Source: a virus (taxonomy: Duplodnaviria; Heunggongvirae; Uroviricota; Caudoviricetes). Taken from it: a stretch of DNA of 38,746 nucleotides. Positions 1,423 through 38,746 of the stretch are shown here, one piece after another. Each line of letters opens with the position of its first letter. Position 1 is the stretch's first letter. The notes below the pieces were generated by a model. It was not told the DNA's origin and made no database searches. It worked only from the letters and a program-made list of their open reading frames with translations. The position numbers and the translations under genes are program-made. The stretch is from IMG/VR virus record IMGVR_UViG_2740892229_000013. One strand, 5' to 3'.

Positions 1423-1551
1423 TCCCAACCAAAGCCAGCATTGCTGGCTTAATTTCTCTATAGCCGCTGGGAGGAACCTGCATATCGATCATGCACCTGA
1501 TCATTATGCTTTGTAGCCGTTTTCTTACTGGTATTATTTACGCCATTTAGA

Positions 1552-1564
1552 AAACAAGTTGTTT
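1552..1564. promoter_or_regulatory. 13-bp palindrome AAACAAGTTGTTT (candidate operator)
   Basis: Perfect 6+1+6 inverted repeat just upstream of RBS of gene 1576; identical copy at 12362-12374. Confidence 0.45.
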
Positions 1565-1575
1565 ACGGAGTTGTG

Positions 1576-1887
1576 ATGAAAAAATCATTGGTTCTTGGTC
1601 TGGACAAAGACCAGAAGAGAAAAGAGAAGCCTGCACTGGTTGCTCAATTAACTTTGCTAGACATCGTTGCCAATGGAACCTCTATTCGTCTGTTCCGTGA
1701 AACAGCGGTGTCTTTCGATAAAAACACCTTTACTCGTTATGTAATGAATGTTCGTCGCCAGCGTGGAAAAGGCTGGATGGCATTTCAAAGAATGTGGCCG
1801 GAACATCAGCTCGAACTGGCTTTGATGGAAGTTAACCGCGTGGCCCAGCAAGAAATTCAGAGAGCATCAGTGATGGCAATAGCCTGA
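1576..1887 (+). CDS. hypothetical early protein (103 aa)
   Basis: ORF track 1573..1887; GGAG 1567-1570 then ATG 1576; followed by terminator. Confidence 0.5.
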   Translation: MKKSLVLGLDKDQKRKEKPALVAQLTLLDIVANGTSIRLFRETAVSFDKNTFTRYVMNVRRQRGKGWMAFQRMWPEHQLELALMEVNRVAQQEIQRASVMAIA

Positions 1888-1921
1888 TAATGTGCAAGTG
1901 GTAATTAGTCGACAGTACGAC

Positions 1922-1949
1922 AGCCCCGCCATCCTTACGGGGCTTTTTT
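1922..1949 (+). terminator. rho-independent terminator
   Basis: GCCCCG (1923-1928) / CGGGGC (1938-1943) stem followed by TTTTTT. Confidence 0.7.
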
Positions 1950-1954
1950 GTATT

Positions 1955-1970
1955 GTAAGTACATACTTAC
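1955..1970. promoter_or_regulatory. palindrome GTAAGTACATACTTAC (AGTAAGTA-family site)
   Basis: Perfect inverted repeat GTAAGT/ACTTAC between terminator and gene 2014. Confidence 0.45.
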
Positions 1971-2013
1971 GATCATAGAATAGAAAAATAACCAAGACAC
2001 TACGGAGAGTGAA

Positions 2014-2409
2014 ATGACCGTTAAACGCGAAAAACTGACAGTTGATGTTTACTATGCCTCTGAAACCGCCGAAGGTAAGAATGTGGCAAAAATCACCGTT
2101 GTTACGTACAACACCGAAACTGGTGCCGAAGTCCAGGCCAGTACGATCGTGCGTAAAGGTGATGCCTCCGGCGGCGAGTACGCGACTCAATACCAGTCCA
2201 TTCTCGATGCAACTGACCCGCTGCTGCTGAAAATCGAGAACTACTTCCGCCAGGTTGATGAAGAGGTGTTTGAAACCATGATGAATATGGTTAACACCGT
2301 ATTCGCCTCCAGCCTGAACACCAGCACCACCTGGATTGGCCAGTACGGTCTGCGCATTACCTCTGGCATTCCTGCCGACACCTTAATCCCTGAAAGCGTA
2401 TTCGCTTAA
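2014..2409 (+). CDS. hypothetical early protein (131 aa)
   Basis: ORF with RBS ACGGAGAG 2002-2009; followed by terminator. Confidence 0.55.
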   Translation: MTVKREKLTVDVYYASETAEGKNVAKITVVTYNTETGAEVQASTIVRKGDASGGEYATQYQSILDATDPLLLKIENYFRQVDEEVFETMMNMVNTVFASSLNTSTTWIGQYGLRITSGIPADTLIPESVFA

Positions 2410-2418
2410 TCCTCTTTA

Positions 2419-2447
2419 AATGGCGCGCAAACCGCGCCATTTTATTA
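2419..2447 (+). terminator. rho-independent terminator
   Basis: AATGGCGCG (2419-2427) / CGCGCCATT (2433-2441) 9-bp stem then T-rich tail. Confidence 0.7.
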
Positions 2448-2455
2448 TGCCCGAT

Positions 2456-2466
2456 AACAATTTGTT
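2456..2466. promoter_or_regulatory. palindrome AACAATTTGTT (candidate operator)
   Basis: 5+1+5 inverted repeat upstream of gene 2527. Confidence 0.4.
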
Positions 2467-2526
2467 TTCTGCCTTATCTGATTTGTGAAAATGATTTCAC
2501 TGAAGCAACTTAATAAGGAAACCATC

Positions 2527-2901
2527 ATGGGACTTGATATCTATATCGAGACACAGCCTAAAAACGATCTGAATAACGAGGCATCCAGAAAGCAGGTTGC
2601 TTACTTCCGTAAGTTCAATGCGCTCGTTGGGTGGATGGAGCGCAACGTAGGTGAAGTCGAAAATTGTGAGCTTTTAGAATTAACGATGAATGACATTTGT
2701 CTTCTGAAAGCTCATTTGATGCACATAAACGAAAGCAATTGCGAAGAGTACTTGCCTACTCGGGAAGGTTTTTTCTTCGGCAGTCAGGAGTACGACGAAG
2801 GTTACTGGCATGACGTGGATAAGCTGAAAAAACTTGTGGAAGACCTGATCAGGAACCACGACTTTCACAATAACAGACTGACCTTCTGCGCCTGGTGGTA
2901 A
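2527..2901 (+). CDS. hypothetical early protein (about 124 aa)
   Basis: ORF track 2485..2901; AAGGA 2515-2519 favours ATG 2527. Confidence 0.5.
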   Translation: MGLDIYIETQPKNDLNNEASRKQVAYFRKFNALVGWMERNVGEVENCELLELTMNDICLLKAHLMHINESNCEEYLPTREGFFFGSQEYDEGYWHDVDKLKKLVEDLIRNHDFHNNRLTFCAWW

Positions 2902-2903
2902 AT

Positions 2904-3047
2904 ATGGGCGATTTCAAGAAACGCCTGAAGGAAAGAGCCGAGATGGTCAGAAAGCAAAACGCCTCTTCTGTCATCAGATACGCAAGGCAGTTTAGTCGCA
3001 ACAACAAATCAGTTGAGGAAAAGATCCTTAGCGTAATCGGTCGATAA
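2904..3047 (+). CDS. possible small basic protein (47 aa), not in ORF track
   Basis: ATG 2904 to TAA 3045-3047, K/R-rich; weak RBS; followed by hairpin 3051-3078. Confidence 0.25.
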   Translation: MGDFKKRLKERAEMVRKQNASSVIRYARQFSRNNKSVEEKILSVIGR

Positions 3048-3177
3048 TTATTAAGGCCATCAGCATTGGTGGCCTTAAATGACCATCCTGTTTCCCGCAG
3101 GCTAAAAACACCAACCTCTTACCTCCAGGCAACCGACAAACCCACCTGTTCCCGTCCGGCTACCGCAACTTTCCACT

Positions 3178-3204
3178 TTGACGCCTTATTCGTACAACGA
3201 TAAT
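3178..3204 (+). promoter_or_regulatory. candidate sigma70-like promoter (TTGACG, 15 nt spacer, GATAAT)
   Basis: -35-like 3178-3183 and -10-like 3199-3204 upstream of gene 3252; spacer shorter than optimal. Confidence 0.35.
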
Positions 3205-3219
3205 TAACACAAACAAGAA

Positions 3220-3230
3220 AACAATTTGTT
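3220..3230. promoter_or_regulatory. palindrome AACAATTTGTT (candidate operator)
   Basis: Same 11-mer as 2456-2466, upstream of gene 3252. Confidence 0.4.
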
Positions 3231-3251
3231 ATTTACGATAAGGAATTAATC

Positions 3252-3734
3252 ATGAATTTTATCGCTACTGTAAACGCACCCGCACATGGCAATATCGCTG
3301 TAACGTTCTCTGACATTGAAAAACGAGTACTTGGTGCATGGCGCGACAATGAGACGGTAGAACTGTCAGCACAAGAAAAATGCATTATTGCACGCGACAT
3401 CATTGGCAATCGTCGTTACTCGCGGGTATTTGAGAAAGCGTATGTGGTAAATTCTGGATTCGGAACGTTCGTCTTTCCGGTGCGCTCCGGGCGATTCTGC
3501 CAGTCCAAGCTGATTGAGTTCGCTACGCAGATTTCTGTCTGGATTAAAACTCAATCGTCGTTCAAATTTTCCGACGATGAAGCAGTATCGCAGGGGATGC
3601 GGATCGCCAACAATGCAATTAAATGCAAAAACATTACGTATACCGCTGGCGTTGATACATGGAAACTGTTTTGCGCTAACTTTATGCTGAATGTATACGC
3701 AAGCAACCGCATCCACATCCTTGATGGCGTGTAA
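3252..3734 (+). CDS. hypothetical early protein (160 aa)
   Basis: ORF with AAGGA RBS 3240-3244; terminator follows. Confidence 0.55.
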   Translation: MNFIATVNAPAHGNIAVTFSDIEKRVLGAWRDNETVELSAQEKCIIARDIIGNRRYSRVFEKAYVVNSGFGTFVFPVRSGRFCQSKLIEFATQISVWIKTQSSFKFSDDEAVSQGMRIANNAIKCKNITYTAGVDTWKLFCANFMLNVYASNRIHILDGV

Positions 3735-27858: not shown

Positions 27859-28557
27859 ATGGGAATTAAAGCTGATATTCAGAGCTTATCTCCCTCTGCA
27901 CTCATTGAGTTGTTCGTATTGGATATGTCGAACACAACTTCAGGGGGGAAGCTATTCTTCCACGCCGGAACAAACGAACTGATGCAACCGGTCGTCTGGC
28001 AAGGAGTGACATACGAGCCGTGGCCAATCAAAGCATCAGGCTTTGACAAAACTGGCCAGGGAACGTTGCCACGTCCAAAAATTCAGGTATCGAACTTTGC
28101 CGGAACCGTCTCTGCGGAAGTTCAGGCGAACGACGATCTTGTTGGCTGCCGCATTATTCGCAAGATGACGCTGGCTCGCTTCCTCGATGCCGTTAATTTT
28201 AAAGACGGCAACCCAACAGCAGATCCAAACCAACATTTCCCGGATGAAATGTGGTTTATCGAACAGAAAACTCTCGAAACTCATCAGGTTGTCGAGTTTG
28301 AATTGTCCAGTGTGTTCGATTTGATGGGGGTGCAACTGCCGTATCGTCAGATCATTAAAAACACCTGCCCGTGGAAATACCGAGGGCCAGAATGCGGCTA
28401 TACCGGTCCATATTTCGACAAAAATAACCAGCAGACGTCTATGTCTGGTGCTGATTACTGCACAAAACGTTATGACGCCTGTAATGCGCGTCGGAATTAT
28501 TTTGCCGACGGTGTGATCCATTTTGGCGGATTTATTGGAGCTACGCGGTATGGGTAA
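27859..28557 (+). CDS. minor tail protein L-like
   Basis: Motifs VWQGVTYEPWPI, RFLDAVNFKDGNPTADP, CPWKYRGPECGYTGP match lambda gpL pattern (from memory); ORF track start 27826 rejected for RBS. Confidence 0.9.
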   Translation: MGIKADIQSLSPSALIELFVLDMSNTTSGGKLFFHAGTNELMQPVVWQGVTYEPWPIKASGFDKTGQGTLPRPKIQVSNFAGTVSAEVQANDDLVGCRIIRKMTLARFLDAVNFKDGNPTADPNQHFPDEMWFIEQKTLETHQVVEFELSSVFDLMGVQLPYRQIIKNTCPWKYRGPECGYTGPYFDKNNQQTSMSGADYCTKRYDACNARRNYFADGVIHFGGFIGATRYG

Positions 28558-29347
28558 TAAAGCAATCCCTGAGCTTGGCTCTGACGTTATGCAGCAAATC
28601 TATCTCTGCGCCATAAATCGCTACCCTAATGAAGCGTGTGGCTTTCTGGTTAGAACTAATGGCGACAAATATCGCTTTATGGAAGCGCGGAATGTTTCGG
28701 AGAACCCGCAGAACACTTTTGTAATGCACGTTGACGACATTATGGCGGCAGAGGATGCGGGTGATGTTATCGCAATCTGGCATTCACATACTGATGAATC
28801 AGCAGAAGCATCTGATGCCGATCGTGCAGGCTGCGAAGCGACGGAAGTTCCGTGGATGATTCTGGCTATTCGCAAGAATGTTGAGGGAGATGCCCCTTTC
28901 CATTTTAGCGAGATGAATGTGATCACTCCTGATGGTTTCGAAATGCCATACCTGGGCAGACCGTATGTATTTGGCGTATTTGATTGCTGGATGTTGTGTC
29001 GGGACTATTTGAAGCGTGAGTTTAACGTCGAACTAAACCCGAACGCACACCTGCATATTCCATCGTGGTACACCGGCGATAACGACATTCTCGATCAGAA
29101 CTACCGAAACGAAGGATTGGTACGGCTTGCGCCCGGAACAGAACCTCAACGTGGGGACGTCTTCTTTATCCAATACGGGAAAATGCCTGACCACTGCGCG
29201 GTTTATATCGGCGATGGAATGATTCTTCATCACCAGATCGACCGCCTAAGTTGTCGTGCTTATTACGGCGGAATGTATCAGAAACATACGACGCATCACT
29301 TGCGTCACAGAGACTTGCTCAAGGGAGATGAGACGTGTCTGAGTTAG
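28550..29347 (+). CDS. tail tip assembly protein K-like (JAMM/MPN + NlpC/P60)
   Basis: HSHTDESAEASDAD metal-binding-type motif; Cys in FDCWMLCRDY; GGAG RBS; overlaps L stop. Confidence 0.85.
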   Translation: MGNKAIPELGSDVMQQIYLCAINRYPNEACGFLVRTNGDKYRFMEARNVSENPQNTFVMHVDDIMAAEDAGDVIAIWHSHTDESAEASDADRAGCEATEVPWMILAIRKNVEGDAPFHFSEMNVITPDGFEMPYLGRPYVFGVFDCWMLCRDYLKREFNVELNPNAHLHIPSWYTGDNDILDQNYRNEGLVRLAPGTEPQRGDVFFIQYGKMPDHCAVYIGDGMILHHQIDRLSCRAYYGGMYQKHTTHHLRHRDLLKGDETCLS

Positions 29348-29925
29348 TTCATGTGCAGCTTGGCGGCCCTATGGCCAAACATTTTGGCCGCCACTGGCAT
29401 CTAAAGGTGCGTAATACAAAACAGGCTCTGGATTTAATTGAGGCCAACAAGCCTGGGTTTAAAGCATGGATGAAGCGCAATATCAAAACCTATGACAGAT
29501 ACCACATCCAGATCACCAATAAACAGGGCCACAAGTGGTCTGTGGACGAGAGTGAATATCAGATGATGGGGCAGTCTGACAATATTGCAAAAATCCGCAT
29601 TACCCCTGTTCCGCGAGGAAGTGGTGGATCTGCTTTTGGATGGTTTCAGACGGTTGTTGGAGCAGTATTAATGGTTGCCTCGATATGGGTGCCCGCTCTT
29701 GCGCCTCTCGGTTTGTCACTGATGATGGGCGGTATAGCGCAAATCATATCTCCGCAAGCCACTAACGAAAGTGTGAGGCAGGCGGATAACTCGAACTCTT
29801 ATTACTTTGATGGACCTCAAAACACAACAAACCAGGGGAACCCTGTACAGCTTATCTATGGCGAGGAAATTTTAGTTGGCTCACAGGTCGTGAGTTCTTC
29901 TATCACCATCGACCAGCTTATGTAA
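29335..29925 (+). CDS. tail tip assembly protein I-like
   Basis: Position between K-like and J-like; hydrophobic central segment; GTG start with AGGGAGA RBS. Confidence 0.75.
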   Translation: MSELVHVQLGGPMAKHFGRHWHLKVRNTKQALDLIEANKPGFKAWMKRNIKTYDRYHIQITNKQGHKWSVDESEYQMMGQSDNIAKIRITPVPRGSGGSAFGWFQTVVGAVLMVASIWVPALAPLGLSLMMGGIAQIISPQATNESVRQADNSNSYYFDGPQNTTNQGNPVQLIYGEEILVGSQVVSSSITIDQLM

Positions 29926-29942
29926 TCAAGGATTTTTTGGAC

Positions 29943-32900
29943 ATGGAACAGTTCAAGAAGAAAAAATTACCGCTTCTTATTGCCGGTGCTGGTGGCAAGA
30001 AAAGTAAAAGCTCCAGCCGTACCCCGGTTGAAGCTGATGATACTGTCAATTCTCGTGCTATGGCAGCCATCCTCGACCTTCTTGGCGAGGGGGTTATCGG
30101 TGGCCTGGTAAATGGCGCAAAGTCGATCTTCATCGACGATTTACCGATCTTGAATGAAGATGGCTCTTCCAACTTCAGCGGTATTACATGGGATTTTCGT
30201 GACGGCTCACAAGATCAGACGCCAATGGCTGGTTTTGATTTTGTCGAAACGCCTAAGTCCGTAAATATTCAGCTTAAAAAAACACACGACGTTACGGTTT
30301 CAATCGATAACGATGAAGCTGATCGCGTTCGTGTCATCATGAAATTCCCCTCTTTACGTAGCGTTGATAAAAGCTCTGGCGATACAAATGGCACTACGGT
30401 GAAGTACAAATTCCAGATCGCCAACGCAGACGCAACATTTTCTGATGTAGTGGCAGAAGGTGAGAAAAGCGTTGATATCACGCTAACGGCAAAGAAAACC
30501 GGCGTGTATTACCGTAGCTATGAGCTGAAACTGCCTAAGCCTGGTCGTGCATACAAGGTTAGGGTGATTCGTCTTACAGATGATAATAGTAGCCAGTACC
30601 TCTACAACGACACATGGGTTGATTCCATCGGTGAGATTGTCGACACGCCAATGAACTACCCTAACTCTGCTCTTGTTGGCTTGAAGGTCAATTCAGAGCA
30701 GTTTGGTAGCACAATGCCTTCCCGTTCGTATTTGGTGCGCGGTATCAAAATCCGAGTACCGTCAAACTACAACGAATACACCAATACTTATGTCGGCGTA
30801 TGGGACGGTACTTTTAAGCTGTTGTCTTCTTCAAACCCTGCGTGGATTCTCTACGATTTGCTTACCAATACTCGGTATGGTCTTGGGCAATTTGTGTCGG
30901 AATCCATGATTGACCTCGGCCAGCTCTACCAGATTGGTCGATATTGTGACGAAGAGGTCGATGATGGCTTTGGGGGTAAAGAGAAACGCTTTGCAATCAA
31001 TACGCAGATCACCAGTCGACAAGACGCATACCGATTAATTCAGGATATTGCCGGTGCATTCCGCGGCATGGTGTTTTGGGCTGGTGGCATGGTTAACATC
31101 ATGCAGGATAGCCCATCAGATCCGGTAATGATGTTTACCAACTCCAACGTCAAAGATGGACTGTTTACCTATAAAGGTTCTGCGCGTAAAGATCGCCCAT
31201 CCGTTGCGCTCGTAACCTACAACAACAAGGAGGACGGTTATAAGCAAAACATCGAGTACGTTGAAGATCAGGACGCAATGCGCCGTTATGGTGAGCTTAA
31301 AACAGAAGTCGTAGCATTTGGGTGTACAAGCCGAGGCCAGGCTCACCGAGTAGGTTTGTGGCTTTTGTATACCGCCAGAATGGAGTCGGATGTAATTACA
31401 TTTACTGCCGGCTTAGACGCCTCATTTCTGATGCCTGGTGAAACCGTTCTGATTCAGAACAAATATCGTGCAGGTAAACGTAACTCCGGTCGAATTGTGG
31501 AGTTTGCCAAAAACAGCATCACTCTCGATGCGCCTGTGTCGTTAGCTAAAAGCGGCAGCTTTATTCGGATATTGAATCAGGAAGGCAAAATCGTTGAACG
31601 CGATGTTCTTGAAACTGGCGAAAACATAACAAAGGTTACGTTTTCAAAAGCCCTGTCGTCAGCGGAAACGCCTGTTTTGAACGGTGTCTGGACAATTACA
31701 GAACCAGATCTCGAACCTATGCGCGTTCGCATCGTTAACATCGCGCAGGGGGAAACGCCGGGTAGCTTTGACATCACCGCTGTTGAGAACAATCCGTCTA
31801 AATATGAGGCAATCGACAATGGTGCAACGCTGATCCCGCAGAATACGACGGTATTGGACCCGACTTACTCCAAGCCATCTAATTTGCAAATCACTGAAGG
31901 GACTTATCTCTCAAGCCCGGGCAACCTGTCAGTAAAACTGACTGCAACATGGGAAGGGAAATCTCCAGAGTATTGGATCAGTTGGCGACGTTCTGATGAA
32001 AACAATGTATCGAACTGGCAATCGGCGCGTGTAACCGAAGAGCAATACGAAATCGTTAATGTCGCGGAGAATGGACGCTACGACTTCCAACTGTATGCGG
32101 TTTCATTCAACGGTAAAAAAACAGAGATTATCAGTACCGTTTATCAGGTGTTGGGCACAATGACACCGCCGGATGCCCCAACGTCATTAACGGCCGTTGG
32201 AGACTATCGTAATGTGATACTGAATTGGGTTAATCCAGATTCGGTAGACCTTGATCACATTAATGTTTACGCATCCCAGACCAACAATCTGGATACGGCG
32301 AAACTGATCGCAGAGTCTGCAAGCACCACCTTTACACATGCTGGTCTTGGGGATAGCGAAACGTGGTATTACTGGGTTCGAGCATCGAACAAGCGAGGTA
32401 TGTTAAGCCCTCCGAACTCAAACTTGGGTACAGAGGCGACAACTCGCGATGTACTGTCGTTCCTGGCTGGCAAAATTACATCTTCCGAGCTTGGTCAGGC
32501 TCTGCTTGAGGACATCAACAGCAAAGCCTCTCAAGAAGCAGTTGACGAGTTAAATGAGCATATCAACCAGAGCGTCGAATCTTTGGAGGGGGCGGTAAAC
32601 GACGTTAAGGAAGATATAGCTGAATTAGATAAGCAGTTCAGCGATAACCTCGCGGATTTTGAAATAAAATTCAACGAGCGTAGCGATGCTTTGGAGAACG
32701 CACAAACCGAGCTTAAAGGTGAGGTTTCGGCAACGATCGACAAGGTCAATGAAGCGTTTGAAAAAATTGATGCTACTGATGCTGCAATTGTTGAAATCGA
32801 AAACACCGTATCTGAACACGATAAAGCTCTCGCTAATACAGTCGAGGCAATAAAGGCTGCAAGAGATGAAGCGGCGGCTCTTATTGCTAAGGAAAGCGAG

Positions 32901-34568
32901 GCTCGTGTTGAAGGCGATGCTGCAAACGCTAAACAACTGGAAGTGTTGCAGTCAACGGTAGAGGAAAGCTCCGCTGCCGTTGAAGAAATGAAAAAGACGG
33001 TTGCAGAGGTCGATCGTGCCAGTGCAGAACTGACTACGAACATTGAGGCGTTAGCCAAAACAAATATTGACCTGGCTCTTCGTCAAGATGAAGACCAGCA
33101 CAAGCAGATGGTCAATAACGCGAAGATCGCAACAACACAGAAAACCTTTGCTGATGATATGTCTGCAATGGCCACGAAGGTTGAGGAAATTCGCGTAGAA
33201 ATTGGCGAAGACATTAAGGCCAGTATTCTGGAAGAGTCCACCGCTCGTGCCGATGGCGATGAAGCGTTGGCAAAGCGTGTCACTCAGCTGCAATCTAAGT
33301 TTGAAGGAGATATCAGCTCGGCGATTAGTACAGAGCAGGAGGCTCGTACATCTGCCGATGAAGCTCTGACGACACAGATCACTCAGCTTGAGTCGAAAGT
33401 AAGCAACGATATCGTCGCAGCTATTAAGGAAGAGCAAGAAGCCCGAGCAACGGAAGATTCGGCTCTGGCAAGCCAGATCACCCAACTTCAGGCAAAGGTT
33501 GACGGTGATATATCCGCTGCCATCACTCAGGAGCAGGAGGCCAGAGCAAGTGCTGACCAGGCGCTCTCACGAGAAATTAACAGCCTGCGAGCACAAACCG
33601 GAACTGATATTGCCGCAGCGGTTGCTGTAGAGACAAAGGCAAGGACTGATGCCGATAGTGCATTGTCCACTCAGATTACGTCTCTTACAGCAAAAGCTAA
33701 TGATCTCGAGGCATCTCTTGCCAGAGAAACAACGGCTCGTGCTGATGGTGATACCGCTTTAACAAAAGAGGTTTCAAGTTTAAAAGCACAGACAGCGAAA
33801 GATATTAGTGCGGCCGTTGCAGTTGAAACGCAGGCTCGAACTGATGCTGACTCGGCGTTGTCGTCTCAGATCACCAAGCTGACCTCTCAATACAAAGAGG
33901 ATATTAAAGCGGCTGTAGCAACCGAAACGAAAACGCGTACAGAGCAAGATGCTGCATTGGCGACTCAAATCACAAACTTAGAGTCTCAAACGGCAGCCAA
34001 CATTTCCGCGGCGGTAACAACTGAAACGACAGCGAGAACGCAGGCAGATAATGCTCTGAGTGGGCGAATCGATACTCTGAAAGCAGAGGTGGATGGAAAT
34101 ACCGCGACAATTCAACAGCAGGCAACAGCTATTGCTGATACCAACAAAAAAGTGTCAACCGCGTGGACGTTGAAAATGGAAACTTCAACGAGCGGAGGGC
34201 AGAAGTATGTTGCTGGTATTGCGCTTGGTATCGACACCACTGGCCTTTCTCAGTTTTTGGTGCAGGCTGACAGGTTTGGTTTGGTCAACTCTGTTAACGG
34301 GAAGATCACCACGCCATTTGTTATCGAAAACAGTATCGCCTATATGAATGGTGCGTATATCAAGGATGGCACAATCACCAATGCAAAAGTAGGCGATCTG
34401 CAATCTACCAATTTTGTTAGCGGTAGATCTGGATGGCGGTTCGGCAAAAATGGAACGCTTGAGATCAACGGTAATAGCGGGGGTAATGGGCGACTGGTCA
34501 TAAATGGTCAGCGGATTGACGTTTATGACGATAACAACGTCCTACGAGTAAGAATTGGCCTTCTGTAA
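29943..34568 (+). CDS. tail tip/host-specificity protein J-like with inserted coiled-coil repeat region
   Basis: Conserved J-like blocks PNSALVGLKVNSEQFGS, AFGCTSRGQAHRVGLWLL, KYVAGIALGIDTTGLSQFLVQADRFGLVN; AAGGA RBS; ORF track start 29937 is TTG. Confidence 0.9.
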   Translation: MEQFKKKKLPLLIAGAGGKKSKSSSRTPVEADDTVNSRAMAAILDLLGEGVIGGLVNGAKSIFIDDLPILNEDGSSNFSGITWDFRDGSQDQTPMAGFDFVETPKSVNIQLKKTHDVTVSIDNDEADRVRVIMKFPSLRSVDKSSGDTNGTTVKYKFQIANADATFSDVVAEGEKSVDITLTAKKTGVYYRSYELKLPKPGRAYKVRVIRLTDDNSSQYLYNDTWVDSIGEIVDTPMNYPNSALVGLKVNSEQFGSTMPSRSYLVRGIKIRVPSNYNEYTNTYVGVWDGTFKLLSSSNPAWILYDLLTNTRYGLGQFVSESMIDLGQLYQIGRYCDEEVDDGFGGKEKRFAINTQITSRQDAYRLIQDIAGAFRGMVFWAGGMVNIMQDSPSDPVMMFTNSNVKDGLFTYKGSARKDRPSVALVTYNNKEDGYKQNIEYVEDQDAMRRYGELKTEVVAFGCTSRGQAHRVGLWLLYTARMESDVITFTAGLDASFLMPGETVLIQNKYRAGKRNSGRIVEFAKNSITLDAPVSLAKSGSFIRILNQEGKIVERDVLETGENITKVTFSKALSSAETPVLNGVWTITEPDLEPMRVRIVNIAQGETPGSFDITAVENNPSKYEAIDNGATLIPQNTTVLDPTYSKPSNLQITEGTYLSSPGNLSVKLTATWEGKSPEYWISWRRSDENNVSNWQSARVTEEQYEIVNVAENGRYDFQLYAVSFNGKKTEIISTVYQVLGTMTPPDAPTSLTAVGDYRNVILNWVNPDSVDLDHINVYASQTNNLDTAKLIAESASTTFTHAGLGDSETWYYWVRASNKRGMLSPPNSNLGTEATTRDVLSFLAGKITSSELGQALLEDINSKASQEAVDELNEHINQSVESLEGAVNDVKEDIAELDKQFSDNLADFEIKFNERSDALENAQTELKGEVSATIDKVNEAFEKIDATDAAIVEIENTVSEHDKALANTVEAIKAARDEAAALIAKESEARVEGDAANAKQLEVLQSTVEESSAAVEEMKKTVAEVDRASAELTTNIEALAKTNIDLALRQDEDQHKQMVNNAKIATTQKTFADDMSAMATKVEEIRVEIGEDIKASILEESTARADGDEALAKRVTQLQSKFEGDISSAISTEQEARTSADEALTTQITQLESKVSNDIVAAIKEEQEARATEDSALASQITQLQAKVDGDISAAITQEQEARASADQALSREINSLRAQTGTDIAAAVAVETKARTDADSALSTQITSLTAKANDLEASLARETTARADGDTALTKEVSSLKAQTAKDISAAVAVETQARTDADSALSSQITKLTSQYKEDIKAAVATETKTRTEQDAALATQITNLESQTAANISAAVTTETTARTQADNALSGRIDTLKAEVDGNTATIQQQATAIADTNKKVSTAWTLKMETSTSGGQKYVAGIALGIDTTGLSQFLVQADRFGLVNSVNGKITTPFVIENSIAYMNGAYIKDGTITNAKVGDLQSTNFVSGRSGWRFGKNGTLEINGNSGGNGRLVINGQRIDVYDDNNVLRVRIGLL
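33240..34100 (+). repeat. about 9 tandem 33-aa (99-bp) coiled-coil repeats within J-like gene
   Basis: Repeated pattern DISAA..EQEAR..AD.AL..QIT.L..K. Confidence 0.7.
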
Positions 34569-34598
34569 TGTAGAAAAAAATATTTATATCGGTAAAAA

Positions 34599-34616
34599 TA
34601 AGTAGGTACATACTTA
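34599..34616. promoter_or_regulatory. palindrome TAAGTAGGTACATACTTA
   Basis: TAAGTA/TACTTA inverted repeat upstream of fibre gene, followed by hairpin GGTGGGC/GCCCACC 34619-34639. Confidence 0.45.
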
Positions 34617-34660
34617 ATGGTGGGCAAGGATAGCCCACCAAATCAAGGAGCATATTCAAC

Positions 34661-35623
34661 ATGTGGTACAGGGAAGGTACTATCACATTTACACAGGGCA
34701 GCAATACTCTGGTTGGGGCAGGGACAGCCTGGAACGTAACAGCTAATGGTGTGTTGCCGGGGATGATCGTCATTGGCCCCGACAATAAGCTGTATGAGAT
34801 CAAGCGCGTAACCAGTGATACGAACATTGTTCTCTCAGAACCTTATACCGGCGAAACTCAGTCTGAAGTTCCGTGCCGAATCATTACGACCTATGAAGGC
34901 GACTTAACACAGTTTAGCGCGCGCTTTACAGCACTAATGTCGCGTATGTCGGCTGATTCCAAGTCCATGCGCAGTTGGTTGACTGCTCTGGATGAGGTGA
35001 CAATCGAGCGTGAAGACGGTACAGAAGTGACCGTTAAGCCGCTAATGCAGATCGTCAACGAGCACAACGAAAACGTTGAGTGGTATAAAAATAACACTGA
35101 CGCGATTGATGCTGCTGGCGACAAAGCTCGTGAGGCGGCGGCCAGTGCTGCCGCAGCAGCAGAAAGCGCCAATATCGCTGGAGAAAAAGCCTCTCAAGCG
35201 TCTCAAAGTGCATCCGCTGCAGAGTCCTCAAAAAGCGCGGCGGCCACCAGTGCCGGTGCCGCGAAAACGTCTGAAACGAATGCTGCAGCGTCACAAAAAT
35301 CTGCAGCCACTTCTGCATCCACCGCGACCACGAAAGCGTCAGAAGCTGCCACCTCAGCCCGGGATGCGGCGGCCTCAAAAGAGGCAGCGAAATCATCAGA
35401 AACGAGCGCAGCCTCGAGCGCCAGTAATGCCGCTTCCTCGGCAACGGCGGCAGGAAATTCCGCGAAGGCGGCAAAAACGTCCGAGACGAACGCCAGGTCT
35501 TCTGAAACGGCAGCGGGACAGAGCGCCTCGGCTGCGGCAGGCTCAAAAACAGCGGCTGCGTCGTCTGCCAGTGCAGCGTCAACAAGTGCCGGGCAGGCCT
35601 CAGCCAGTGCCACCGCCGCCGGA
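34661..35623 (+). CDS. tail fibre protein with Stf-like Ala/Ser-rich central repeats, 3-prime end lost at N gap
   Basis: AAGGAG RBS; unique N-terminal about 150 aa then Ala/Ser/Thr-rich repeats nearly identical at DNA level to 36548-36815 and 36826-37170; runs into gap at 35624. Confidence 0.65.
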
Positions 35624-35633
35624 NNNNNNNNNN
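35624..35633. other. run of 10 N (assembly/scaffold gap 1)
   Basis: Literal n characters; reading frame and gene identity change across it. Confidence 0.95.
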
Positions 35634-35708
35634 GTCGCTTATGAAGGCTCCGGCAGTGGTGACTGGCGCACTGACGGGTTCATCGTGGGTGTTGGTTATA
35701 AATTCTGA
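35634..35708 (+). pseudogene. lom: 3-prime remnant of lom-like outer-membrane protein gene (last 24 codons)
   Basis: Encodes VAYEGSGSGDWRTDGFIVGVGYKF-stop, matching the lambda Lom C-terminus as I recall it; no upstream part present. Confidence 0.7.
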
Positions 35709-35734
35709 TTAGCCAGGTAACACAGTGTTATGAC

Positions 35735-35761
35735 AGCCCGCCGGTTCAGGCGGGCTTTTTT
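35735..35761 (+). terminator. rho-independent terminator
   Basis: AGCCCGCC (35735-35742) / GGCGGGCT (35749-35756) then TTTTT. Confidence 0.75.
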
Positions 35762-35772
35762 GTGGGGTGAAT

Positions 35773-38746
35773 ATGGCAGTAAAAATTTCAGGTGTACTGA
35801 AAGACGGCACAGGAAAACCGGTACAGAACTGCACAATCCAGCTGAAAGCAAAACGTAACAGTACCACGGTGGTGGTGAACACGCTGGCATCTGAAAATCC
35901 GGATGAAGCCGGGCGTTACAGTATGGACGTTGAGTACGGTCAGTACAGCGTTATTCTGTTGGTGGAAGGATTCCCGCCGTCACATGCCGGGACCATCACA
36001 GTGTATGAAGATTCCCGACCCGGTACGCTGAATGATTTTCTCGGTGCCATGACGGAGGATGATGCCCGTCCGGAGGCACTGCGCCGTTTTGAACTGATGG
36101 TGGAAGAGGTGGCGCGTAACGCGTCCGCGGTGGCACAGAACACGGCAGCCGCGAAGAAGTCAGCCAGCGATGCCGGCACATCAGCCCGTGAGGCGGCAAC
36201 CCATGCGACTGATGCTGCAGGCTCAGCACGTGCAGCCAGCACATCAGCCGGGCAGGCCGCGACGTCGGCTCAGTCAGCGTCTTCCAGCGCAGGAACGGCA
36301 TCAACAAAGGCTACTGAAGCATCAAAAAGTGCTGCCGCTGCAGAGTCCTCAAAAAGCGCGGCGGCCACCAGTNNNNNNNNNNCGCAGCCAGCACGTCAGC
36401 CGGACAGGCCGCGTCGTCGGCTCAGTCAGCGACTTCCAGCGCAGGAACGGCATCAACAAAGGCCACTGAAGCATCAAAAAGTGCTGCCGCTGCAGAGTCC
36501 TCAAAAAGCGCGGCAGCTACCAGTGCCAGTGCCGCGAAAACGTCAGAAACGAATGCGGCAGCGTCACAACAATCAGCAGCCACTTCTGCATCCACCGCGA
36601 CTACGAAAGCGTCAGAAGCTGCCACCTCAGCCCGGGATGCGGCGGCTTCAAAAGAGGCGGCAAAATCATCAGAAACGAACGCATCCTCGAGCGCCAGTAG
36701 CGCAGCTTCCTCGGCAACAGCGGCAGGAAATTCCGCGAAGGCGGCAAAAACGTCAGAGACGAACGCCAGGTCTTCTGAAACGGCAGCGGGACAGAGCGCC
36801 TCGGCTGCGGCAGGCNNNNNNNNNNGGCAGCGTCACAAAAATCTGCAGCCACTTCTGCATCCACCGCGACCACAAAGGCGTCAGAAGCTGCCATCTCAGC
36901 CCGGGATGCGGCGGCCTCAAAAGAGGCAGCGAAATCATCAGAAACGAACGCATCATCAAGTGCCAGTAGTGCAGCTTCCTCGGCAACGGCGGCAGCAAAT
37001 TCTGCGAAGGCGGCAAAAACGTCCGAGACGAACGCCAAGGCTTCTGAAACGGCAGCGGGACAGAGCGCCTCAGCTGCGGCAGGCTCAAAAACAGCGGCTG
37101 CATTATCTGCCAGTGCCGCGTCAACAAGTGCCGGGCAGGCCTCAGCCAGTGCCACCGCCGCCGGAAAATCGGCAGAAAGTGCTGCATCGTCTGCTTCAAC
37201 AGCCACAACGAATGCTGGCGAAGCCGCTGTACAGGCCAGCGCAGCAGCGAGGTCAGCTTCCGCAGCGAAGACATCCGAGACGAACGCGAAAGCGTCGGAA
37301 ACCAGCGCAGAATCCTCAAAAACGGCAGCGGCATCGTCCGCCAGTTCGGCGGCGTCATCGGCATCATCGGCGTCTGCTTCAAAAGATGAGGCGACCAGAC
37401 AGGCGTCAGCAGCGAAGAGCAGCGCCACGACGGCATCCACGAAAGCAACAGAGGCGGCAGGCAGTGCGACGGCGGCAGCACAGAGCAAAAGTACGGCGGA
37501 ATCCGCGGCAACGCGCGCCGAGACAGCGGCAAAACGGGCAGAGGATATTGCATCCGTCGTGGCGCTTGAGGATGCGAGCACGACGAAAAAGGGGGTAGTA
37601 CAGCTCAGCAGTGCGACCAACAGTACGTCTGAAACGCTGGCGGCAACGCCAAAGGCAGTAAAATCAGCCTATGACAATGCAGAGAAACGTCTGCAGAAAG
37701 ACCAGAACGGCGCTGATATACCCGACAAGGACCGCTTCCTGAGTAACATTAATGTTTACAGCAAAGGTGAAGTGGATCAGAAAAAGGGGATGCGATACGT
37801 TGTGGTAAATGCCCCGGCGGGTGTCCAGGAAGGTAAATATTATCCGTTAGTGATAAAAAGGAATGACAGCCATCGGGCATCCCGCGTTGTCATTTCAACG
37901 CCAAGTCGCTCAGCTAATCACAGAATGAATAATTGTGAGTTTAATGGTTTTGTTTGCGCAGGCGGCTGGACGGACCGGGGTAGCTATGCCTGTGGTATGT
38001 TCTGGGCTTATTCAACATCGGAACGCGCTATTCATTCCATTCTGATGAGTAATAAAGGCGATACCGTAGACAGCGTATTCTATATAGAAGGTGGGGCATT
38101 TCCCGTAGAGGTCTTTTTAGAAGAAGGTCTCTCCGTTACTGCACCTGCTTCTGATTATATTGTTGCTGAAACGACTTATAAATTTGGCGCAACTGATCCT
38201 TATTCTGAATCAGTTGCGGTAAATTTAATTTTAGATTTTAAACAAGGTAATGGATTTTATAGTTCATATCCTGTTTTGAGTAAGTCAGACATTAGCGGGA
38301 ATAAGATTTACGCTAATGATGAAGTTATTGTCCGTAGTCAGAACGCGTTAAGGATGATTGCAGGTGATTACGGTGTCATATGGCGAAATGATGGAGCAAA
38401 TACTTACTTGCTCATGACTGATAAAGGCGACCAGTACGGTGGCTGGAACGGTCTTCGACCATTTGCAGTAAATAACGCAACAGGTGAAGTGACGATCAAT
38501 ACACCACTTAATTCTCCTAAGGGGATTAAGGGAAATTCTGATACAGCTACGAAACTTCAGACAGCAATAAAAATATCTGGTGTTTCGTTTGATGGTTCTA
38601 CTGATATCACTTTAACCGCTGCGCATGTTGCTGCTTTTGCCAGAAGAGCAACGGATACGTATGCCGATGCGGATGGGGGCGTTCCATGGAATGCCGAATC
38701 AGGCGCTTACAATGTCACCCGCTCTGGCGACAGCTATATTCTGGTT
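35773..38746 (+). CDS. stf: lambda Stf-like side tail fibre, interrupted by two N gaps, 3-prime partial
   Basis: N-terminus MAVKISGVLKDGTGKPVQNCTIQLKAKRNSTTVVVN matches lambda Stf as recalled; frame 1 to 36372, frame 0 for 36384-36815, frame 2 from 36827 to window end with no stop. Confidence 0.8.
36373..36382. other. run of 10 N (assembly/scaffold gap 2)
   Basis: Literal n characters; flanks are about 93 percent identical redundant copies. Confidence 0.95.
36816..36825. other. run of 10 N (assembly/scaffold gap 3)
   Basis: Literal n characters; sequence after gap restarts about 270 bp upstream in the repeat unit. Confidence 0.95.

Follow-up and report, generated by a model that had tools for sequence, protein, structure and literature searches.

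The locus downstream of position 34661 raises the question of whether a phage-plasmid has acquired a lambdoid lom-stf segment within its own tail-fibre region or whether DNA of a host prophage has been scaffolded into a phage assembly. The window (the whole 38,746-nucleotide stretch that was analysed, IMG/VR virus record IMGVR_UViG_2740892229_000013) contains three N runs, each of exactly 10 N, and from their coordinates the block in question, 35634-36372, is exactly the piece between gap 1 and gap 2. We refer to the sequence up to 35623 as piece 1, to 35634-36372 as piece 2, to 36383-36815 as piece 3, and to 36826-38746 as piece 4. The N runs are uniform in length, and the fibre frames shift phase from one side of a gap to the other; the gaps are placeholders and not measured gaps. 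The features of the locus are as follows.

29937-34568, + strand: J-like central tail fibre/host-specificity gene, 1543 codons (PHROG 31, "central tail fiber J", and PHROG 2589)
34661-35623, + strand: 5' part of the phage-plasmid's own tail-fibre gene, 963 nt, 321 codons with no stop, ending at gap 1
35624-35633, strand not applicable: gap 1, a 10-N scaffold placeholder
35634-35708, + strand: 3' end of an Ail/Lom gene, last 24 codons and stop (Pfam Ail_Lom, PF06316)
35735-35766, + strand: predicted intrinsic terminator between lom and stf, consisting of a G+C-rich hairpin (35735-35756) and then a run of T
35773-36372, + strand: lambdoid stf head, first 200 codons, from ATG at 35773 and open to gap 2 (phage_tail_N at 35773-36174, after which Ala/Ser repeats start)
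36373-36382, strand not applicable: gap 2, 10 N
36383-36815, + strand: piece 3, part of the repeat zone of a second lambdoid stf allele, redundant with both the piece 2 end and the piece 4 start
36816-36825, strand not applicable: gap 3, 10 N
36826-38746, + strand: piece 4, the middle part of the lambdoid stf that piece 2 begins, with 640 open codons and a Gp34_trimer domain (PF21446), running off the window end

Piece 1 belongs to a phage-plasmid. The SSU5 group is a phage-plasmid group (PMC9600943), and the window is collinear with its closed members across the structural genes, but only at 55-35623. Positions 60-25000 are collinear with phage-plasmid CMS-2020a (CP053388) at 98.3% identity, and positions 28000-35623, a stretch that includes the whole J-like gene, differ at 2 of 7624 positions from the closed E. 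coli plasmid NZ_CP027358.1 (plasmid unnamed3 of E. coli strain 2013C-4991). In that plasmid J is followed directly by one intact fibre gene of 1385 codons with the same head and with neither lom nor an stf head, and Cyrano (OV696614) has the same J-then-fibre layout, with genes annotated as holin, endolysin, and spanins coming after the intact fibre gene. The closed references (NZ_CP027358.1, Cyrano, and CMS-2020a) carry intact fibres of 1341-1385 codons, whereas the fibre of the window, which is 96% identical to those of Cyrano and CMS-2020a, stops after 321 codons at a 10-N gap with prophage DNA next. Its frame contains no stop and is severed at gap 1 by the contig end. The stretch that holds the fibre head, 34500-35623, is 99.8% identical to positions 6840-7963 of L075, so the start of the fibre gene corresponds to L075 position 7001, from which the L075 frame runs to 11158 (1385 codons).

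The first 176 residues of the plasmid fibre match no Pfam family. Comparison with the stf head by BLASTP gave an E-value of 0.14, which is not significant, so the two heads are unrelated at the pairwise level, and homology between them was rejected on this basis. Some PHROG families match both heads; those families are probably themselves mosaic.

Piece 2 opens directly after gap 1 with 35634-35705, which translate to VAYEGSGSGDWRTDGFIVGVGYKF and are followed by a TGA stop. These 24 residues align with positions 176-199 of the 199 positions of Ail_Lom (E 1.5e-10) and coincide with annotated Lom genes in lambdoid phages and E. coli prophages. A full-length PF06316 barrel has about 199 residues and a signal peptide; the stub is a fragment of an Ail/Lom member and not a gene, as the contig starts inside lom and includes no more than its last 24 codons. 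Downstream, 35735-35766 is predicted to be an intrinsic (Rho-independent) terminator: a pattern scan finds a 6-nt loop on a stem of 8 pairs, of which 7 are G-C, the minimum free energy of 35725-35772 is -19.1 kcal/mol, and a terminator is annotated beneath the matching stretch in the deposited lambdoid records mEp460 and Ayreon. The frame that begins at 35773 carries, at its very start, the domain that marks stf members, with residues 1-134 matching positions 1-134 of 134 of PF08400 (phage_tail_N; E 5e-73, 243.9 bits against a cut-off of 26.6). The original prediction had described the last 24 residues of Lom after gap 1, a strong terminator, and a fibre with about 130 Stf-like N-terminal residues, placed behind a J-like gene that is followed not by lom but by a different fibre (34661) with an unrelated N terminus, and this description holds in each of its parts.

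The arrangement in piece 2 is the lambda-type order, that is, the C-terminal strand of Lom, an intrinsic terminator, phage_tail_N of Stf, and Ala/Ser repeats. The first three elements occur in the same order in lambda (J02459, 19.5-20.25 kb) and in prophages (NCTC9113, CFSAN064035, and PhiR30_1). Alignment of the 739-nt block, as had been proposed, gave 86.8% DNA identity to lambda J02459 19514-20249 (lom/orf-401). Many lambdoid phages reach 95-98.6%, and chromosomal prophages of E. coli as much as 99.3% (98.6-99.3% for the prophages with the same three elements); the matches of the lom stub, the stf head, and the block as a whole are far above chance. The last 372 nt of the piece (36001-36372) show no mismatch to the prophage stf of NCTC9113. 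In the reference prophages the J - lom - stf - tfa context is complete. Unlike these and lambda, the window has the block without a lambdoid J, the rest of lom, the 3' end of stf, or any tfa, and it places the block after an SSU5-type J and a different fibre head. Of 5426 complete genomes, 4766 contain the sequence of piece 2; with a median of 2 sites per E. coli genome and a maximum of 14, it is a typical multi-copy element of the kind that breaks assemblies. Piece 2 is a mosaic of two reference alleles, which could be a natural variant or a consensus chimera.

Over 1920 nt piece 4 shares 99.8% identity with PhiR30_1 and with prophages in the chromosomes of NCTC9113, A12, EH41, and others, and its left 292 nt carry prophage-specific variants unlike piece 1. 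In the matching prophage genomes it begins about 33 nt past the end of piece 2; joined by these 33 bridging nucleotides, pieces 2 and 4 form a single block on the chromosomal lom-stf region of E. coli NCTC9113 with 99.44% identity over 2690 nt, reproducing the prophage gene. A chromosomal prophage of E. coli 2013C-4991, the same strain that carries the matching plasmid NZ_CP027358.1, has an stf with 100% identity to piece 3, as do seven other genomes among the matches listed. In reference coordinates 142 nt of piece 3 fall on piece 2, with 8 mismatches, and 259 nt fall on piece 4, with 20 mismatches, and therefore the order 2-3-4 is not that of a linear gene; piece 4 in turn overlaps the end of piece 1 by 340 nt. 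The chained pieces are thus redundant on a closed reference. No single complete genome in the collection has all four pieces at 100% identity. The best matches for piece 2 (99.3%) and piece 4 (99.8%) come from different strains, and strain 2013C-4991 has the plasmid and piece 3 but a prophage whose identity is only 98.4% to piece 2 and 92.9% to piece 4. Positions 35634-38746 are joined to the SSU5-type fibre head in none of 68 related viral contigs and none of 440 plasmids, and they match chromosomal prophages at 99.3-100%; judged by these alignments, everything after gap 1 is lambdoid prophage DNA.

The ends of the pieces lie in sequence that the two kinds of fibre share. From about 35185 onward the plasmid fibre consists of an Ala/Ser-rich repeat zone common to lambdoid stf, and 35185-35623 is 93-94% identical to it; over the zone common to SSU5-like fibres and stf, identity is 89-94%, including exact stretches of 38-65 nt. 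Piece 1 ends in 48 nt that are identical to 37118-37165; likewise, the last 38 nt of piece 2 are identical to 35214-35251 and the last 60 nt of piece 3 to 35483-35542, and the start of piece 4, from its second base, has 47 nt in common with 35285-35331. At random positions of the repeat zone the median match is 17 nt, and only 14% reach at least 38 nt. Fixed-length N placeholders combined with piece ends in exact repeats are what an assembly artefact leaves behind. An attempt to deduce the k-mer size of the assembler was dropped, as end overlaps of 38, 47, 48, and 60 nt are inconsistent with one k. The zone repeatedly breaks short-read assemblies at this fibre site: the fibres of 11 of 68 related contigs meet the contig end 0.4-1.8 kb into this gene.

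Our favoured explanation, to which we give a probability of roughly 0.9 on the strength of these sequence comparisons, is that the lom/stf block in the plasmid fibre is a scaffolding artefact of host prophage contigs and not a new mosaic. A lambdoid prophage of the E. coli host would be the source of the 739-nt block, a small contig with the 3' end of lom, the terminator, and the first 600 nt of stf. In the Ala/Ser-rich repeat zone, which the fibre of the SSU5-like phage-plasmid has in common with the stf genes of two or more lambdoid prophages, a short-read assembler may have broken the assembly graph. The scaffolding step would then have chained four repeat-bounded contigs with 10-N placeholders in the order phage-plasmid, prophage A lom 3' end and stf head, prophage B stf repeat, and prophage A stf middle. 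The real plasmid fibre would run some 3.2 kb beyond 35623, like that of the almost identical closed plasmid, and the lom stub and stf head would be absent from the phage-plasmid, as the junction would be from the real molecule. This is the mis-scaffolding of a host prophage piece that the original prediction had offered as one of two possibilities; the evidence supports it and extends it beyond 36372, from 35634 to the window end.

Relatives of the locus bear on the alternatives. Among 68 IMG/VR loci found with the fibre-head protein, none contains an N run or the part of piece 2 that is unique to it, and no plasmid among 440 matches in PLSDB carries the fibre head together with piece 2; the fibre head joined to the lom/stf block is found in neither set. 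A literature search on the tail fibres of SSU5 phage-plasmids yielded no more than general background and did not turn up this junction. One SSU5-like element, L019, has a fibre with a middle part like piece 4 and is a natural hybrid of plasmid fibre and lambdoid stf, and therefore recombination in these repeats is biologically plausible. The other possibility in the original prediction was that a lambdoid stf module had been acquired through such recombination, leaving a lom stub. In such a mosaic a phage-plasmid with a truncated fibre of its own would continue into the stub, the terminator, and a complete lambdoid stf from a prophage. The order of the deposited scaffold agrees with this, the 89-94% identical repeats in both fibre families could support recombination, and L019 provides a natural precedent. 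We nevertheless regard a genuine mosaic as very unlikely. The lom end and stf head lie 5' of the stf repeats, and repeat recombination cannot put them 3' of the plasmid repeats; pieces 2, 3, and 4 overlap in reference coordinates and represent different alleles; the frames change phase at the gaps; and both NZ_CP027358.1, despite its near identity to piece 1, and L065 have an intact L075-type fibre, while the junction itself is missing from the 68 viral contigs and the 440 plasmids.

A scaffold that is partly true has to be considered as well, in which the plasmid fibre passes from 35623 straight to position 37166 in distal piece 4 and onward, as an L019-like hybrid, the distal module being common with a resident prophage and only pieces 2 and 3 and the left 340 nt of piece 4 being interlopers. 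The 48 nt at the end of piece 1 lead directly to this point, and piece 1 joined to 37166-38746 aligns with the L019 fibre ungapped over 2540 nt at 93.1%, with equal length to that point; L012, too, has sequence like piece 4 after the repeats. Against this, the fibre continuation in the near-identical closed plasmid is only 89% identical to piece 4, and L065, L013, and L009 have the L075-type continuation at 99-100% (in L065 the head protein is 100% identical, as are fibre positions 964-2700, followed by 99.9%). The overlap and L019 thus stand against the differing closed plasmid and these three loci, so a continuation into piece 4 is only a minor rival, and we consider it improbable. Piece 4 is moreover one contig that matches chromosomal stf at 99.8% from end to end, its prophage-specific left 292 nt included, and only 1 of the 68 loci (L019) has the distal module of piece 4 at 90% coverage or more. 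If the link were true, the distal part of the fibre would have been swapped for the receptor-binding part of Stf of a co-resident lambdoid prophage by recombination in a shared exact repeat of 48-65 nt, a very recent exchange of host-range modules between a plasmid-prophage and an integrated prophage within one cell. Even then 35634-36372 would not be rescued, and the lom/stf-head block would still be an interloper. It is also conceivable, with a likelihood that we place close to nil, that an excised lambdoid prophage entered the plasmid fibre through one crossover in the shared repeats, giving a cointegrate with both hybrid junctions present in the cell. The shared repeats are long enough for a RecA-dependent crossover, and the sample contains both replicon types, but such a cointegrate predicts the fibre head beside the distal part of stf, and lom with the stf head about 45 kb away beside the distal plasmid fibre, and the scaffold order differs on both counts. 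Nor is a hybrid junction visible, since piece 2 runs on into piece 4 within one intact prophage allele.

Exchange of tail-fibre modules among unrelated phages is a natural pattern. The present locus resembles it in the repeat zone shared by the SSU5-like fibre and lambdoid Stf and in the hybrid fibre of L019, but natural exchange gives one continuous hybrid reading frame, as in L019, whereas the window has a lom stub and a second fibre start. The repeat zone is the real feature underlying this locus, one that mediates natural module swaps such as that of L019. The block itself is of little biological import, its lom end, terminator, and stf head being of an ordinary kind that is very common in E. 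coli prophages. For annotation the locus does matter: taken as a single phage, the scaffold would imply two fibre systems and a lom relic on one phage-plasmid and provide a false case of inter-family mosaicism and of host-range determinants. Among repeat-induced scaffolding errors of draft assemblies, a parallel is found in ON470598.1 (vB_EcoS-569R4, a partial genome), where a 10-N gap interrupts the stf repeats and the sequence resumes with a 3' fragment of lom, a terminator, and another stf head. There both sides of the gap are lambdoid, whereas in the window the left side is phage-plasmid, and for that reason the join looked like an inter-family mosaic.

Comparison with related sequences supports one of the two readings in the original prediction, that a piece of host prophage was mis-scaffolded into the phage assembly, and this reading covers all of 35634–38746. 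Judging from sequence comparisons, we consider it about 90% probable that this stretch is mis-scaffolded host prophage DNA and no acquired module; the lom/terminator/stf-head segment embedded in the fibre locus would then be no real biological feature. The window contains three runs of N, each exactly 10 long (35624–35633, 36373–36382 and 36816–36825), and the fibre reading frames change phase at every one. Such uniform gaps look like scaffolder placeholders. They delimit four pieces, p1–p4.

Pieces at the right end of the window, with the features of p2
up to 35623: p1
35634–36372: p2, the segment under study
35634–35705: lom C-terminal stub, encoding VAYEGSGSGDWRTDGFIVGVGYKF, then a stop
35735–35766: predicted G+C-rich terminator hairpin with a T run, fold energy −19.1 kcal/mol
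35773 (ATG) to gap 2: head of the lambdoid side tail fibre gene (stf), an ORF open up to the gap
36383–36815: p3
36826–38746: p4

The original description of p2 was accurate in each of its elements. The stub peptide matches the final 24 positions of Pfam Ail_Lom (176–199 of 199, E = 1.5e-10), the hairpin and T run follow, and residues 1–134 of the stf head cover the entire Pfam phage_tail_N (E = 5e-73). Alignment bears out the lambdoid origin: p2 has 86.8% DNA identity to lambda lom/orf-401, 95–98.6% to many lambdoid phages and up to 99.3% to chromosomal Escherichia coli prophages. Of 5426 complete E. coli genomes, 4766 contain this sequence, and the median number of places in a genome is 2. 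The lom, terminator and stf elements are ordinary lambdoid prophage parts. Within p2, 35634–36092 has zero mismatches to a prophage of strain 2013C-4991 and 36001–36372 zero to one of NCTC9113, each reference mismatching the other half at 11–12 positions. This mosaic is either a natural recombinant allele, on which it bears that CFSAN064035 differs from p2 at 5 positions only, or a consensus switching between two resident prophages.

The piece to the left has a different relationship. Window positions 60–25000 are collinear with Escherichia phage CMS-2020a (98.3%), and 33000–35624 is 96.6–97.3% identical to CMS-2020a and phage Cyrano and 78% to Salmonella phage SSU5. The best reference is a closed 110,001-bp plasmid of E. 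coli 2013C-4991, NZ_CP027358.1, from which p1 differs at 2 of 7624 positions over 28000–35623 and at 1 of 2239 over 55–2293 (99.96%). Therefore, p1 belongs to the SSU5-like phage-plasmids, a group already described (PMC9600943). Directly after the J-like gene comes a single intact fibre gene, 1385 codons long in NZ_CP027358.1 and 1341 in Cyrano, and in neither element does a lom or stf head follow the J-like gene. The window counterpart, in contrast, is open from 34661 for 321 codons and stops short at gap 1.

The other two pieces are prophage stf as well. Over 1920 nt, p4 is 99.8% identical to stf of the lambdoid phage PhiR30_1 and of chromosomal prophages (NCTC9113, A12, EH41 and others); its identity to phage-plasmid fibres is just 88–89% and confined to the repeat zone. 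In NCTC9113 and PhiR30_1, about 33 nt separate the p2 end from the p4 start, and p2, 33 bridging nt and p4 form one alignment of 2690 nt, 99.44% identical to the NCTC9113 lom–stf region, with zero mismatches over the last 372 nt of p2. Thus, p2 and p4 are consecutive parts of one prophage stf. On the reference, p3 coincides with 142 nt at the end of p2, differing from it at 8 positions, and with 259 nt at the start of p4, differing at 20; it therefore cannot sit between them. It is 100% identical to stf of another chromosomal prophage, present among other strains in 2013C-4991, which carries both this allele and the plasmid nearly identical to p1. In turn, p4 begins with 340 nt paralogous to the 340 nt at the end of p1 (20 mismatches). 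Given these mutual overlaps, the chain strings together alleles of three replicons or loci and is no linear gene. In the 2013C-4991 chromosome (locus L076, 2339–5478), the IS66-family element ISEc23 splits lom of the p3-allele prophage, an insertion unrelated to the start point of p2. In the PhiR30_1 record (locus L005, 4368–7761), stf is annotated as three separate CDS and its NCTC9113 equivalent (99.8%) is one 3396-nt ORF; the record probably holds frameshifts or sequencing errors there.

An Ala/Ser-rich repeat zone, beginning at about 35185 in p1, is common to the phage-plasmid fibre and lambdoid stf at 89–94% identity, with long exact runs that coincide with all internal right ends of the pieces and with the p4 start.

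Exact runs at the piece ends
p1 right end: last 48 nt identical to 37118–37165
p2 right end: last 38 nt identical to 35214–35251
p3 right end: last 60 nt identical to 35483–35542
p4 start: from the second base, 47 nt in common with 35285–35331

At random repeat-zone positions exact matches have a median length of 17 nt; 38 nt is reached by 14% of positions and 60 nt by 0.2%. Graph-based short-read assembly would be expected to produce ends of this kind at shared repeats, and the pieces could then have been chained through the zone common to fibre and stf, the scaffolder inserting 10-N placeholders. In 11 of 68 IMG/VR contigs with the phage-plasmid fibre head (loci L012, L020, L024, L028, L040, L055, L057, L059, L061, L062 and L063), a contig end inside the Ala/Ser repeat zone cuts the fibre gene 0.4–1.8 kb in. 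The partial genome of Escherichia phage vB_EcoS-569R4 (ON470598.1; locus L004, 7183–7560) repeats the window's arrangement: within the stf repeats, a run of 10 N is followed by a lom 3′ fragment, terminator and second stf head. This deposited phage genome probably contains a scaffolding artefact of the same kind. Together these cases indicate that assemblies repeatedly fail at this spot.

The other original reading, in which the phage acquired a lambdoid stf module by recombination within the repeats and kept a lom stub, finds no support. Its junction is absent from the related sequences: the unique part of p2 occurs in 0 of 68 viral contigs, and fibre head and p2 occur together in 0 of 440 matching plasmids. 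Recombination inside the repeats would moreover give one continuous hybrid ORF, unlike the window, and the lom stub and stf head precede the repeats of stf on the 5′ side and cannot land 3′ of the plasmid's repeats that way; in a cointegrate they would end up about 45 kb off. Real module exchange mediated by shared repeats is nevertheless in evidence in an SSU5-like element, IMGVR_UViG_2671180676_000004 (locus L019, 6001–10290). Its flanks are 97–99% identical to Cyrano, and the fibre middle (gene positions about 1460–3700) is replaced by lambdoid-stf-like sequence, 94.5% identical to window 37700–38746 and, over 2.1 kb, 89.8% identical to NCTC9113 stf; on its sequence, the gene encodes a natural hybrid phage-plasmid fibre. 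Because this mosaic is real and a hybrid of p1 and p4 (37166 onward) aligns to it gap-free over 2540 nt, true continuation of p1 into distal p4 is retained as a minor rival. Against it, the nearly identical plasmid NZ_CP027358.1 continues with sequence only 89% like p4, a continuation common to L065, L013 and L009 at 99–100%, and p4, being one contig, carries prophage-specific variants at its left and matches chromosomal stf over its whole length at 99.8%. That rival would in any case leave the lom/stf-head block outside the phage-plasmid.

Two observations concern p1 itself. Bases 1–54 have no match to NZ_CP027358.1 at the collinear position, the CMS-2020a match begins only at about base 55–60, and neither the rest of the window nor the fetched loci contain a second copy; the edge probably marks a further contig end or a rearrangement boundary. 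The J-like gene (29937–34568), at 1543 codons, is far longer than J annotated in the lambdoid reference loci (3.4–3.5 kb). Its C-terminal third (32500–34300) encodes a long stretch of degenerate periodic repeats (for example, ...ITQLQSKFEGDISSAI..EQEARTSADEALT...) that looks coiled-coil-like and is followed by a short C-terminal domain.
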